From NCBI GenBank assembly GCA_005223125.1, contig NJBH01000029.1, positions 1 through 52,258 of the forward strand: a stretch of DNA of 52,258 nucleotides. Reading direction: 5' to 3'. Below are positions 34,653 to 40,315 of this stretch, piece after piece. Made by a program: the position numbers and the translations under genes. Position 1 is the first letter of the stretch; every line of letters starts with the position of its first letter. Under the pieces are notes generated by a model. It was not told where the DNA came from and did not search any database. It worked only from the letters and a program-made list of their open reading frames with translations. This stretch comes from Promethearchaeota archaeon Loki_b32. Lineage in GTDB: Archaea; Asgardarchaeota; Lokiarchaeia; Sigyniarchaeales; SOKP01.

Positions 34653-35444
34653 ATGGGAGGAGGACAATATTCAATTGAAAGGGAAAATTCTGATAAGAAT
34701 CTTGATTTAACTAGAATTAAACCTTATGGAGATACAATGAACGATGGGAAGGTTCAATTAAGTTTTACCCTTCCTATAGAACATGATGAAAAAGCAATTG
34801 AAACCGCTAAAGAACTCGCAGTAAAAATGGGGATAAAAGATCCTGAAGTAACATATCATACTACTTTAGACAAAGGATTCACTTATTTTGTAGTTTATGG
34901 AAAGTCAATTCATACCATCGATTACACGAAAATTAAAGTAGAAACCGTAGAAGTAGATGTTATGTCAATAGAAGATATTAATAACTATATCAAAGAAAAG
35001 ATTAGGCGTAAATTGGTCATCCTTGGAGCATCAACGGGATCCGATGCTCATACTGTAGGGATTGATGCAATTATAAATATGAAAGGTTTTGCTGGTCATT
35101 ATGGTCTTGAACATTATGAAATGATCGAAGCTTTTAACTTGGGGAGTCAAGTAACAAATGAAGAATTTGTTAAAAGAGGGATAGAACTTAACGCTGATGT
35201 TTTACTTGTTTCGCAAACAGTTACACAGAAAGATATTCATGTAAAAAACCTAACACAATTGGTAGACTTACTGGAAGCTGAGGGCATAAGAGATAAAATC
35301 ATTTTAGTTTGCGGTGGAGCTAGAGTAAGTAATGAATTAGCAAAAGAATTAGGATATGATGCTGGATTTGGTCCAAGTACTTACGCCGAAATTGTAGCAT
35401 CGTTTTTCGTAAAAGAATTTGTAAGAAGAAAAAAATTAGATTGA
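34653..35444 (+). CDS. kamE: Lysine 5,6-aminomutase beta subunit (B12- and PLP-binding)
   Basis: KPYGDTMNDGKVQLSFTLP, DAHTVG base-off motif, NMKG PLP lysine, SQTVTQ. Confidence 0.96.
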   Translation: MGGGQYSIERENSDKNLDLTRIKPYGDTMNDGKVQLSFTLPIEHDEKAIETAKELAVKMGIKDPEVTYHTTLDKGFTYFVVYGKSIHTIDYTKIKVETVEVDVMSIEDINNYIKEKIRRKLVILGASTGSDAHTVGIDAIINMKGFAGHYGLEHYEMIEAFNLGSQVTNEEFVKRGIELNADVLLVSQTVTQKDIHVKNLTQLVDLLEAEGIRDKIILVCGGARVSNELAKELGYDAGFGPSTYAEIVASFFVKEFVRRKKLD

Positions 35445-35470: not shown

Positions 35471-35740
35471 TCATTTTTGCCAAGCTCTCATAACCATATG
35501 TGTATTTGAGCTGGAAATTCCTTGAATAAGATCAATTTTATTGGCAAAAATATCAAATAATTCTTCCGGAGTTTCTACTTCAATCTCTGTTAAAACATCA
35601 TAATCTCCTGTTAAAGACATAATTTTTTTAATTTGAGGGATATTTTTCAGTTCTTCAATTACGCTGTTTATTACACTTAATCCTAACTTAAAAAGACTTA
35701 TCGCAATAATTGTTATAATAGTTCGCCTTTTTTTATTCAA
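35471..35740 (-). CDS. Stand-alone Lrp/AsnC ligand-binding (RAM) domain protein
   Basis: LKNIPQIKKIMSLTGDYDVL...IDLIQGISSSNT; no HTH. Confidence 0.85.
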   Translation of the reverse strand: MNKKRRTIITIIAISLFKLGLSVINSVIEELKNIPQIKKIMSLTGDYDVLTEIEVETPEELFDIFANKIDLIQGISSSNTHMVMRAWQK

Positions 35741-37056
35741 GTTGATAATTTTTCAATTTTATTAATAAAAATAATTTCTATTTTTTTAATTTCATTAATT
35801 GGTTTTAATCGTTTATTAACTAAAGAATAAAGATCTTTAATAGAACTAATTTTGACATCAACTAACAAATCATAAGTTCCAATTATAGCATTAACTGATT
35901 TAACTCCATAATATTTCAAAATCCTTAAAATTATAGGCTTTATTTTTCCCATCCTTAGAGTTATTAAAAGGTATGCTTTTACTAAATTCTTAGTTTCATG
36001 AGCATAGCGAAATACTATAGTAATAATTAACAAGAATATCGTTATTATTAAAAGATCATAAGGAAAATATTCGCTAATTAGAAGTACTGAGAATATTATC
36101 GAACCCAAAGGATCAATTAAATTCAATATACTACTCCATTGGCTATATGTTAAATTTTCTGATTTCCAATTTACATTAGTAATGAATATAAGAATATATG
36201 GAATCAAAGTAGAAAAAATTATCAAATATAATATTTCCCATCTACCTAGAATAACAAAAAAATTTAAAAATTGGTTGAAAAATTGAACAGATTCAAATTT
36301 TAATTCATTAGGAAATGGTAAAATTGCTACAACAAACACAAATGGAATCATAGAAAGGGTTCCAAGAAAAAATGACACGCCAATTTTTATAAGGAATCGT
36401 GGAATTTTATAAAATTTATTTTTACTTACTAACTTCACTTCTTCTTTTGATAATGCATCTCTATTTATACTAACGTATAAAAAAGAAATTGTTATACTAA
36501 AAATCAAAAGATATAAAGCACCATTAAATGTAATAGGTTTTCCCTTTAAATCCCCACCTTTAATACTTATAAATATTAATATAATAATTGAAAAAGCTAA
36601 CATAATAATATAGAGAACTTTAAATATGTCAAACTTCTCAAAATTAACTCCTTTATTATACAACGCAATTATAATAACGCTAAGTAAAAATCCTGTCATC
36701 GCAAAAATTATTGATGTGGTTTTTAACGCTAAAAAAAAGAAAATAAGATGAAGTATAATTCCAAAAAACCCTAACAACCAATAATAATAGATATTTTTAA
36801 TATGGTAAAAACGTCTATTTGGATGAAATAAATTCTTGAAAAAGGATTTTATAGGTATTTCTTTATTTTGAGTTAATTTATTATTATATATTATTAAAAT
36901 CAGTGCTAATAGAAATAAAAAAGCCCCTGAGATCAAAAACCTTAAAAAAATTACCATTATTATTGATACTTCCAAAAATAACTCAGATACCACTATTGGA
37001 ATAAAACTCCATAGAAGATTAGCTATTACGATGTTAATTAGTAGTTTATTACTCAT
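35737..37056 (-). CDS. DMT/EamA-like polytopic membrane protein fused to a C-terminal Lrp/AsnC (RAM) domain
   Basis: About 10 TM segments with ANLLWS, FLRF and ILNLIDPLGS EamA-like motifs; the C-terminal ~80 aa contain AYLLI...IIGTYDLLV. Confidence 0.75.
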   Translation of the reverse strand: MSNKLLINIVIANLLWSFIPIVVSELFLEVSIIMVIFLRFLISGAFLFLLALILIIYNNKLTQNKEIPIKSFFKNLFHPNRRFYHIKNIYYYWLLGFFGIILHLIFFFLALKTTSIIFAMTGFLLSVIIIALYNKGVNFEKFDIFKVLYIIMLAFSIIILIFISIKGGDLKGKPITFNGALYLLIFSITISFLYVSINRDALSKEEVKLVSKNKFYKIPRFLIKIGVSFFLGTLSMIPFVFVVAILPFPNELKFESVQFFNQFLNFFVILGRWEILYLIIFSTLIPYILIFITNVNWKSENLTYSQWSSILNLIDPLGSIIFSVLLISEYFPYDLLIITIFLLIITIVFRYAHETKNLVKAYLLITLRMGKIKPIILRILKYYGVKSVNAIIGTYDLLVDVKISSIKDLYSLVNKRLKPINEIKKIEIIFINKIEKLST

Positions 37057-37262
37057 AGACCTTATATGTTTGAAATTATATTATCAATTTTATCTAAGCT
37101 TAGATTAAAAATAAAAAGCTAAAAATAAGTTTTATTAGTTTCACAATTTTTATTTACCCATATTATTCCCTTATTGATATTTTGGAAAAAAATTAAAATT
37201 TTATTATATATATCAATTAATTAAATGTTAATTTTAATATAAAGAAGTAAATGTGAAATTTT

Positions 37263-38525
37263 ATGCCAAGTTCAAAAGACTATATTGAAATGGATTTAGA
37301 ATATTGCGCCCATAATTATCATCCAATTCCAGTTGTTATATCAAAAGCAGAAGGAGTTTGGGTTTATGATCCAGAAGGTAAAAAGTATTTAGATTGTTTA
37401 TCTGCTTATTCAAGTCAAAATGCGGGTCACTGTCATCCTGAAATTGTGGCGACATTAAAAGAACAAGCAAATATCGTTACTCTTACCTCTCGTGCGTTTC
37501 ATAATGATATGATGGGCCCTTTCCTCAAAATGTTAGCAGATGTTGTTGGACCACACATTAATGATCCTACAAACTCAGGTATAATGTCCCTCCCTATGAA
37601 TACAGGGACAGAAGCGGTATCTACGGGCATAAAAGTAGCAAGAGCATGGGGATATATAAAGAAAAAAATTCCTAAAAATGAAGCAATAATAATTGTATGT
37701 AGAAACAATTTTCATGGAAGAACCATCACTATTGTTGGTTTTAGCTCTGATATTTCAGCAGCTCGGTACTATGGAAACTTTGGTCCCTATACACCGGGAT
37801 TTATAATTATCCCTTATGGAGATGCTGAAGAATTAGATAATGTAATATTAGAAATCGGTCCAGAAAAAGTAGCAGCCTTTTTAGTCGAACCAATACAAGG
37901 AGAAGCAGGAGTTAATGTTCCTCCAGAAGGATACTTACGTAAGGTTAGAGAAATTTGTACAAAACATAATGTATTACTGATTTTAGATGAAATTCAAACG
38001 GGTTTTTGTCGAACTGGAGAATTTTTTGCATGTGATCATGAGGACGTGAAACCAGATATGTTATTATTAGGTAAGGCTCTTGGGGGTGGCGTTTATCCTG
38101 TTTCTGCATGTGTATCGACAAAAGAAATTATTGGTCCAGATGTGATAACTCCTGGAACTCATGGAAGCACTTTCGGTGGAAATCCTTTAGCTGCTGCTAT
38201 TGGAATGAAATCAATAGATATCCACTTACGCGAGAATCTTGCTGAACGATCTAAAGAGATGGGCGCATATTTTATGAAAAGATTAAAAGAAATTGCTGAA
38301 AAAAGGACTAAAATACCAATTAAAGAAATTAGAGGAAAAGGATTATTGATCGCGGTTGAATTTACTGAAGATGCAAGGCAAATTGTCGAAGAGCTCAAAG
38401 ATAATGGAATCTTAGCTAAAGATACTCACTCAACAACCATACGATTTGCACCCCCTTTAGTAATTACTAGAGAAGAAATTGATTGGGCTATGGAAATAAT
38501 TGAAAAAGTATTTGTGAAACAATAA
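37263..38525 (+). CDS. rocD: Ornithine--oxo-acid aminotransferase
   Basis: AHNYHP, DCLSAYS, TLTSRAF, EPIQGEAG, DEIQTG, LGKALGGG, HGSTFGGNP. Confidence 0.93.
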   Translation: MPSSKDYIEMDLEYCAHNYHPIPVVISKAEGVWVYDPEGKKYLDCLSAYSSQNAGHCHPEIVATLKEQANIVTLTSRAFHNDMMGPFLKMLADVVGPHINDPTNSGIMSLPMNTGTEAVSTGIKVARAWGYIKKKIPKNEAIIIVCRNNFHGRTITIVGFSSDISAARYYGNFGPYTPGFIIIPYGDAEELDNVILEIGPEKVAAFLVEPIQGEAGVNVPPEGYLRKVREICTKHNVLLILDEIQTGFCRTGEFFACDHEDVKPDMLLLGKALGGGVYPVSACVSTKEIIGPDVITPGTHGSTFGGNPLAAAIGMKSIDIHLRENLAERSKEMGAYFMKRLKEIAEKRTKIPIKEIRGKGLLIAVEFTEDARQIVEELKDNGILAKDTHSTTIRFAPPLVITREEIDWAMEIIEKVFVKQ

Positions 38526-39588: not shown

Positions 39589-39996
39589 TCAATATGAAAT
39601 TAGTTCAATACCCTCAATAATCTCAAAATGCTTAATATTTTTAGTAATAATTCTTTTTATACCATTTGAAAGCATAATTCCCGCGATTAGGATATCGTTA
39701 TCATCTATTCTTTGCCCTTTGGATTCAAGAGCATCAGATATCTTTGCTGCTTTTTCAGCTTCTTTAAATCCTAAGGTGAAGATTTCCATACTACTTATAA
39801 ACTCCATCCAAATTTTATAGAGTTTTTTATACCTCTCTTCTGAAATTATTCTTCTTGTACGTTCTAAACCAATATTTACTTCATAAATAGAAATGGATGT
39901 AAGATTGAATAGGCTTTCTTGTTCAGAGAGAACTTTTTTAATTTGTTCGTTTCCATTTAGATAATCTATGCATGCGGAAGTATCAAGAATAATCAT
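39589..39996 (-). CDS. vapC: VapC PIN-domain toxin
   Basis: ILDTS, YE, DILIAG, TKN..HF. Confidence 0.92.
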   Translation of the reverse strand: MIILDTSACIDYLNGNEQIKKVLSEQESLFNLTSISIYEVNIGLERTRRIISEERYKKLYKIWMEFISSMEIFTLGFKEAEKAAKISDALESKGQRIDDNDILIAGIMLSNGIKRIITKNIKHFEIIEGIELISY

Positions 39997-40232
39997 TTTA
40001 TTTCACCAGTTCCAGATCTTTTCCAACTACGACCAGGACGATTTGAAATATCATCCCAAATCTCAATTTTCTCTTTATTAGAAAGATTCCATGCTCCAAA
40101 GCTTTTTTCCATTTTATTTTTTTGGATTCTTAATAATCTTAGGAAAAGTTCAGAGAAACTTTCGTTCTCTCCCTTTATTTTCATTAATTTTTTATAGACA
40201 TTCTCAGTAATACTAATATTTTTTGAAGTCAT
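39993..40232 (-). CDS. vapB: VapB-family antitoxin
   Basis: MTSKNISITENVYKKL...ESFSELFLRL; ATGA overlap with vapC. Likely start at 40232. Confidence 0.85.
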   Translation of the reverse strand: MTSKNISITENVYKKLMKIKGENESFSELFLRLLRIQKNKMEKSFGAWNLSNKEKIEIWDDISNRPGRSWKRSGTGEIK

Positions 40233-40251
40233 ATGTATACACATATACATA
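40232..40251. promoter_or_regulatory. Inverted repeat, putative VapBC autoregulatory operator
   Basis: TATGTATA-CACA-TATACATA abutting the antitoxin start codon. Confidence 0.5.
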
Positions 40252-40315
40252 CACATATTTATTCTTTTTACTATTTGAAAAGAACTAAATTAATATGGTA
40301 AATAAAACTTATAAC

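Follow-up and report, generated by a model that had tools for sequence, protein, structure and literature searches.

Does a membrane transporter in an Asgard archaeon carry its own cytoplasmic amino-acid sensor, and does the small gene beside it supply the other half of that sensor? The question is raised by two adjoining genes on contig NJBH01000029.1 of Promethearchaeota archaeon Loki_b32, which we analysed as a stretch of 52,258 nt (the window; all positions refer to it unless another locus is named). One gene encodes a membrane protein of the drug/metabolite transporter (DMT) fold ending in a RAM domain, the other a stand-alone RAM protein. Lrp/AsnC transcription factors sense amino acids through their RAM domains; for stand-alone RAM proteins, which lack a helix-turn-helix (HTH) domain, the purpose is still unclear. 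Our best reading is that the pair encodes an amino-acid-regulated DMT secondary transporter, the sensor being a heterodimer of the fused and the free RAM domain; we give this reading a probability of about 0.55.

Fold and topology of the two proteins

The fusion gene (37056..35737, minus strand) was identified from the list of open reading frames (ORFs) and by Pfam, and its product has 439 aa. Hydropathy, AlphaFold2 and Foldseek agreed on a membrane domain at residues 1-356 (35989..37056, minus strand) with the DMT fold, forming a divergent orphan family of DMTs. We found ten transmembrane (TM) segments by hydropathy, which correspond to the two 5-TM halves of a DMT. Lysine and arginine were counted in the loops according to the positive-inside rule, giving 20 in even-numbered loops vs 6 in odd-numbered ones. 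This bias indicates an N-in/C-in topology with the RAM domain in the cytoplasm; by this prediction both termini should be cytoplasmic, matching the description of LicB (PMC8890701).

The AlphaFold2 model of the fusion, built from a 32-sequence alignment, had a predicted local distance difference test score (pLDDT) of 88.8 and a predicted TM-score (pTM) of 0.84. In it, ten TM helices precede a beta-alpha-beta-beta-alpha-beta domain that spans residues 359-430. In Foldseek searches the membrane part matched the DMT structures YddG (5i20), LicB (7paf), Vrg4 (5oge), SLC35B1 (9i20) and PfCRT (6ukj) with TM-scores of 0.6-0.7, and the membrane domain of a homolog, P0132, aligned with DMT structures at VIA-align Z-scores of 16-22. 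Pfam EamA (PF00892) reached 22.6 bits over the first half only (residues 6-161), short of its cut-off of 28.2, which is passed by some homologs (L027, 29.3 bits; P0124, 29.0 bits). The membrane part is a DMT by fold, yet it falls below the curated Pfam threshold.

The fused cytoplasmic RAM domain was assigned by Pfam, AlphaFold2 and Foldseek to residues 357-439 (35737..35988 with the stop codon, minus strand). Pfam AsnC_trans_reg (PF01037) covered residues 365-431 at 25.6 bits, which is marginal to its cut-off of 25; homologs scored 32-35 bits. Using Foldseek, we matched the tail to the stand-alone RAM proteins DM1 (2e1a, TM-score 0.91, root-mean-square deviation (rmsd) 1.1 A), TTHA0845 (2djw, TM-score 0.87) and PHS023. 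As the membrane part finds DMT structures and the tail finds RAM structures, both halves of the DMT-RAM observation are real. An earlier note, made from the letters of the window alone, had described a ~10-TM EamA-like protein whose Lrp/AsnC domain contains IIGTYDLL and whose neighbour contains LTGDYDVL; this description held in every part, including the RAM fold of the C-terminal region.

In the model, TM10 (residues 333-356) enters RAM beta1 via a two-residue link. The R-Y-x-H-E junction directly after TM10, in which E354 is invariant, is among the best-conserved parts of the fusion protein. Outside the RAM domain 17 residues are invariant, of which 8 (N80, E140, D200, R220, K224, W297, W307 and E354) map to the TM10-RAM junction or to the side predicted to face the cytoplasm. 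In TPT, Vrg4 and CST, protomers dimerise through TM5 and TM10, and DMTs have their N- and C-termini in the cytoplasm (PMC8890701). A domain borne on TM10 would for this reason be well placed to meet its counterpart on a second protomer.

The stand-alone RAM gene (35740..35471, minus strand) encodes 89 aa when read from a TTG (~81 aa in relatives). AsnC_trans_reg (PF01037) covered residues 24-85 at 48.8 bits, and the protein has the size (~75-90 aa) and RAM-only content of a stand-alone RAM protein. No HTH match was found in either protein in the Pfam scan, and NCBIfam regulator models covered the RAM parts only, far under their cut-offs. Neither protein is an Lrp/AsnC transcription factor, as the N-terminal winged HTH is absent from both; the small gene was thus correctly named an HTH-less RAM gene at first sight. 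The overlap between the two genes had been misread as ATGA and is in fact TTGA, the TTG start sharing letters with the TGA stop of the fusion. That TTG is the sole in-frame canonical start ahead of M41; the ATG used by close relatives is ATA in the window, eight codons downstream. The small gene is probably co-transcribed with the fusion gene and translationally coupled to it. An N-terminal TM helix in the small protein was considered and ruled out, as its hydrophobic residues correspond to RAM beta1 in alignments with relatives and with FL11. The best PDB sequence matches of the free RAM were TTHA0845 (6e-6) and FL11/PH1519 (1.3e-5). FL11 has been reported as a Lys/Arg/Gln-responsive regulator, and we take the sequence resemblance as a lead, not as an assignment of specificity.

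The gene pair, proposed pairing of RAM domains and the predicted ligand site

Homologs of the fusion were found in more than 250 clusters at 90% identity, with lengths of ~436-441 aa and with PF01037 and/or EamA matches. Nearly all come from Asgard archaea, labelled Promethearchaeota, Hod-, Hermod- or Thorarchaeota; the host genome itself has 4.13 Mb and a GC content of ~30%. Public databases call them 'EamA family transporter' or 'Lrp/AsnC ligand binding domain-containing protein'. A profile search against 1.84 billion representatives returned only 1050 clusters at E<=1e-3, of which 58 reached E<=1e-30, with the closest RAM-less relatives appearing only at about 1e-13. Judged by sequence, the fusion is a small DMT family distant from the mainstream. 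Of 201 Asgard genomes, 34 contain it, spread over three families with 24-28% identity between clades: the window's own family (28/40 genomes), a second family (2/3) and a third, Atabeyarchaeia (3/3). At the species level all loci (60/60) were Asgard. The named non-Asgard relatives are one Korarchaeota metagenome-assembled genome (MAG) and one Spirochaetota MAG; relatives in Thermoplasmatota, suggested by a protein atlas, were not confirmed among the named ones. In a quick tree the Spirochaetota protein was nested within an Asgard clade (SH-aLRT 97), which by sequence fits Asgard-to-bacteria transfer or mis-binning of the MAG.

The small RAM gene was found on the same strand, directly 3' of the fusion, in all 22 evaluable loci from genomes and contigs and in 53 of the 53 evaluable species-level loci, the latter being those with at least 200 nt of sequence downstream of the fusion. 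The gaps range from -1 to about 30 nt, and Atabeyarchaeia have wider ones of about 110-125 nt. An artefact of assembly or gene calling was ruled out by the conserved partner gene and by the constant length of hundreds of homologs. Thus, neither the fusion nor the two-gene pair that the earlier note had picked out is peculiar to one assembly. Deeper clades have two small RAM genes downstream (L024, L025), two upstream (L097) or one upstream (L029). The idea of a universal partner gene was abandoned, since none was found beside the fusion genes of Korarchaeota and the P0140 clade.

Some variants of the locus were also recorded. After the DMT-RAM gene of L096, a 72-aa ORF (L096:4314-4532, plus strand) repeats in tandem part of that gene's own RAM domain, from its last half (beta3-alpha2-beta4), and is not a complete RAM protein. 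Two genomes carry only the N-terminal 80-95 residues of the fusion (51-54% identity) beside an intact rocD (G083:C22:41773-42057 and G071:C39:13841-14083), and by sequence these look like remnants of gene loss. Four metagenomic proteins, P0194 (692 aa), P0197 (829 aa), P0199 (1238 aa) and P0239 (618 aa), share the membrane domain (E 1e-8 to 1e-15); in place of RAM they have long additional segments, mostly towards the C-terminus, to which no Pfam model matched. No longer fused form was detected in the window's clade at 770 aa or more, which is weak evidence, nor at 500 aa or more among the top 120 near-length matches.

Natural fusions bear on whether the two RAM domains pair. P0132/P0274 (541 aa, from the Spirochaetota MAG) has the order DMT-RAM-linker-RAM in a single chain and is followed by a further RAM gene, while the metagenomic fragment P0184 has RAM, a ~110-residue linker and RAM in one chain. 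The AlphaFold2 model of P0132 gave a pLDDT of 84.8 and a pTM of 0.77, with 84-91 for the second RAM domain and <50 for the linker. In a full VIA-align scan, residues 297-541 of this model aligned with the Lrp-like pseudo-dimer of NirDL (4czc_A) at Z 18.1 and rmsd 2.9 A over 166 residues, and residues 352-541 aligned with other tandem ferredoxin-like barrels at Z 9-12. The NirDL superposition means that the model sets RAM1 and RAM2 as a canonical Lrp-type dimer. Together, the tri-fusions and the P0132 model support pairing of the fused with the free RAM domain. Mixed RAM assemblies are known, as the stand-alone RAM protein DM1 forms hetero-octamers with the full-length regulator FL11 (PMC2995911). 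Of the earlier proposal that the RAM domains hetero-oligomerise into a cytoplasmic gate, the pairing is backed; the gating, and the alternative of tethering Lrp-family regulators to the membrane, stay hypothetical. Nor did we find specific support for the analogy with RCK rings; the data fit one RAM heterodimer per transporter, with ligand sites possibly between two such dimers.

The same observations can be arranged differently, with no heterodimer at all. The fused RAM domains would then form a homodimer under a TM5/TM10 transporter dimer, and a free-RAM homodimer would need ligand in order to bind to it, much as GlnK docks on AmtB. Such an arrangement would agree with ligand sites lying between dimers in Lrp proteins, where ligands often drive association from dimer to octamer (PMC2995911), and with the position of TM10 at the dimer interface of several DMTs; the long linkers of the tri-fusions (about 30 and about 110 residues) also permit its geometry. 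On the other hand, the tri-fusion model has RAM1 and RAM2 in one canonical dimer, and a fused-RAM homodimer would have no T-x-T clamp of its own, though a docking free-RAM dimer could supply one. We consider this arrangement unlikely.

The T-x-T clamp and a second motif, GxxD, were assigned their roles from the structure of Grp with glutamine. There, D102 of the G99-x-x-D102 loop binds the amino group of the ligand, and a subunit of the adjacent dimer contributes T132 and T134, which bind the carboxylate (PMC2504300). The fused RAM has an invariant G393, has D396 in at least 90% of sequences (G-T-Y-D in the window) and has nothing like a T-x-T motif. The free RAM has both G-[DE]-Y-D (G-D-Y-D in the window) and [ST]-x-[ST]-H (S-N-T-H in the window), the latter being confined to the free RAM. 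Because the fused RAM has the GxxD half only, a complete canonical site requires the free RAM. If Lrp proteins are a guide, the complete site would lie between two RAM dimers. GxxD in both RAM types (G393 and D396 in the fused one) and the free-RAM [ST]-x-[ST]-H were kept in the window, f2 and Atabeyarchaeia (f13) clades despite an overall identity of 24-28%.

This retention of the ligand-backbone positions of Grp speaks against the RAM domains being solely an assembly or stability module, which would dimerise or chaperone a constitutive permease and sense nothing. Clades without the Asp of GxxD (the P0140 clade, Korarchaeota P0176 and the L029 type) still retain the fusion, as a purely structural role would allow, and several archaeal Lrp proteins have been reported not to respond to amino acids (PMC2995911). 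We regard a structural role alone as unlikely too, and rank it below the docking of homodimers.

Under our preferred reading, an amino-acid-regulated transporter with a heterodimeric sensor, the two genes form one module. Its 10-TM DMT permease would be continuous, through TM10 and the RYxHE junction, with the cytoplasmic RAM domain, and the free RAM would pair with the fused RAM into a canonical Lrp-type dimer beneath the transporter. The fused GxxD loop would bind the alpha-amino group of the ligand and the T-x-T clamp of the free RAM would take the carboxylate. Full amino-acid sites would thus form only where the free RAM contributes, between two RAM dimers and so where two transporter units meet. 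An amino acid bound from the cytoplasm would alter the association of the RAM dimers and, via TM10, the transport activity. The outcome could be feedback inhibition of uptake or the opening of an efflux route.

Several points weigh against this reading. Transport is deduced from fold alone, for a protein under the EamA cut-off in a family remote from characterised DMTs. The heterodimer rests on the P0132 model, that is, on a distant relative (23% identity) in which both RAM domains are tethered in one chain, and RAM2 of P0132 was covered by three alignment rows only, as MAFFT had aligned the free RAM sequences with RAM1. Because a canonical ligand site is formed where two dimers meet, the scheme requires a higher-order assembly, and ligand binding is a prediction only. 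The Asp of GxxD is missing in some clades (the P0140 clade, Korarchaeota P0176 and the L029 type), and the Korarchaeota locus L095 and the locus L096 are without an intact neighbouring partner.

Gene neighbourhood and the question of substrate

The pair lies, as first noted, between kamE (34653-35444, plus strand), with which it is convergent, and rocD (37263-38525, plus strand), from which it is divergent across a 206-bp spacer. Beyond kamE are kamA, kamB, kamD and kce; beyond rocD are genes for carbamate kinase, a VapBC pair, ornithine carbamoyltransferase (OTCase) and an amidohydrolase. Judged from their ORF sequences, a PIN-type VapC-like ORF and a small upstream ORF (39589-40256, minus strand) sit between carbamate kinase and OTCase, which usually adjoin in relatives and are separated in the window by this ORF pair.

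At 52% identity or more, rocD or kamDE adjoined the fusion in 33 of 34 loci, usually with carbamate kinase and OTCase after rocD. Beyond this range the association faded. At 44-49% identity, only 5 of 18 loci had rocD nearby, and most homologs below 50%, as well as the deep clades, were in unrelated gene contexts. Across 61 family genomes, 19 had fusion and rocD, 24 the fusion only, 9 rocD only and 9 neither, which is no coupling; rocD was scored as absent where no match reached E<=1e-100, as in 24 of the 43 family genomes with the fusion. An obligate functional link to rocD was ruled out by this presence/absence pattern, and because of it we toned down the claims on substrate. The Lys/Arg/Orn link put forward in the earlier note stays conjectural, since synteny with rocD/kamDE holds only at 52% identity or more and those 24 genomes have no close rocD. 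A role in ornithine, arginine or lysine traffic is plausible from gene order for the window's subfamily only; there, ligand and substrate are probably linked to the catabolism of ornithine, arginine or lysine.

The intergenic region common to rocD and the fusion (37057..37262) contains a GGGAA-N5-6-TGGG element at 37157-37170 (minus strand), about 100 nt from both start codons. GGGAA was present in 18 of 18 and TGGG in 16 of 18 aligned loci, and the AT-rich spacer around the element has diverged. It is the sole intergenic match in the window, the other three matches being in coding sequence, and on this sequence pattern we propose it as a candidate site for a shared regulator of rocD and the fusion. 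No Rfam match to a structured RNA was found in the flanks of the pair. A scan for sigma-70 promoters and terminators was discarded as meaningless for an archaeon; it gave fewer matches than shuffled sequences.

In a rival account, the membrane protein would serve chiefly to sense, as a transceptor or an anti-regulator. Instead of or besides transporting, it would, according to amino-acid status, hold or release the free RAM, or recruit Lrp-type regulators by RAM-RAM contact, and so control transcription of rocD and neighbouring genes. Such contacts have a precedent in the DM1-FL11 hetero-octamers (PMC2995911), the conserved GGGAA-N5-6-TGGG element is in the promoter region common to rocD and the fusion, the host genome has 13 further PF01037 loci, and the membrane domain occurs with other large C-terminal extensions as well (P0194, P0197 and P0199). 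Against this, no full-length Lrp gene was found within the 52-kb window, and nothing links the GGGAA-N5-6-TGGG element to a RAM-containing regulator. The tri-fusion keeps one free RAM permanently tethered, which fits poorly with signalling by release, and the full 10-TM DMT fold is retained with conserved intramembrane polar residues and cytoplasmic loops. We consider a predominantly sensory role improbable, though the strongest competitor of a regulated transporter.

Among the PF01037 proteins of the host genome, we noted a 430-aa protein (G000, contig C29; L030:4412-5704, plus strand) with a TBP-repeat match (59.8 bits), HTH_24/HTH_11 and AsnC_trans_reg (47 bits). By these domain matches it joins a domain like that of TATA-binding protein to a complete Lrp-type regulator.

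Another neighbour was seen outside the window. In 9 of 53 species-level loci, an orthologous Ras-family small GTPase gene lies convergent to the module, 3-25 nt past the free RAM gene. We give L010:7591-8142 (minus strand) as an example, with the same position in L039, L044, L045, L060, L064, L065, L070, L071 and L087. In the distant f2 clade a different Ras-like GTPase of 619-639 aa is convergent to the module (L024:1360-3219 and L025:1098-3017). With a Ras-family background of ~85 matches per 4.13-Mb genome, these positions may reflect chance or inherited gene order. A more far-reaching scheme would make the module an archaeal amino-acid transceptor, in which a composite site built from two half-sites signals to soluble partners, either Lrp-type regulators through RAM-RAM hetero-assembly or the convergent Ras-family GTPase. 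We think this very unlikely; if true, it would parallel, in a prokaryote, the sensing of amino acids by transporters in eukaryotes.

Comparison with known systems

No published description of a RAM domain on a transporter was found in the literature that we searched on RAM-transporter and EamA-AsnC-Asgard combinations, and none of the papers found names both AsnC_trans_reg and EamA; the earlier impression that no DMT-RAM fusion has been characterised thus agrees with that literature. A 2023 review of the post-translational control of bacterial transporters has no mention of RAM, Lrp or ACT domains or of DMT. Transporters regulated by a cytoplasmic domain that binds a ligand are known; the module would belong with them as a DMT-RAM protein with a free RAM partner, an architecture for which we found no description.

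With the 10-TM DMT carriers (YddG/EamA exporters, LicB, SLC35, Vrg4 and TPT) the module shares its fold and N-in/C-in topology. It differs from them in its remote sequence, its long conserved cytoplasmic loops, the C-terminal RAM domain and the small partner gene; none of the matched solved DMT structures showed a RAM domain. Its RAM fold, and the GxxD and T-x-T motifs of the free RAM, are those of stand-alone RAM and Lrp/AsnC proteins (DM1, DM2, STS042, TTHA0845; FL11, Grp). As in the DM1-FL11 pair, a free RAM is proposed to assemble with another RAM-bearing protein. Here, unlike in DM1-FL11, the partner would be a membrane transporter and not a DNA-binding regulator, there is no HTH, and the fused RAM has a half-site only.

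Two transport systems are comparable by analogy only, both being non-homologous. In the methionine ABC importer MetNI, a cytoplasmic amino-acid-binding domain is likewise fused to the transporter, and its C-terminal C2 domain shuts transport when the internal amino acid is high (trans-inhibition). MetNI differs in being a primary ABC transporter whose regulatory domain is on the ATPase, is not PF01037 and needs no separate small partner, and the module's transporter could be inhibited or activated. AmtB-GlnK, like SbtA-SbtB, has a small soluble sensor encoded beside the transporter, as the free RAM is, and the free RAM is proposed to bind the cytoplasmic face in the same way. GlnK, however, is a PII trimer plugging a trimeric channel, whereas the module's sensor is a RAM protein and the transporter bears a domain homologous to it. 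NirDL and the siroheme decarboxylase AhbA/B have two Lrp-like RAM domains, in a single chain or a heterodimer, that form one barrel, as is proposed for the fused and the free RAM; NirDL gave the strongest structural match to the RAM1-RAM2 pair of the tri-fusion model. Unlike the module, NirDL is a soluble enzyme with HTH-like domains and no membrane part, and is functionally unrelated.

In the module, a RAM domain appears to be coupled straight to a predicted secondary transporter, and the free RAM has an obvious, strictly conserved partner. The energy metabolism of Asgard archaea is based on amino-acid fermentation. If confirmed, the module would represent a new type of allosteric control for the DMT superfamily, a concrete role for stand-alone RAM proteins and a regulated amino-acid carrier in Asgard archaea.

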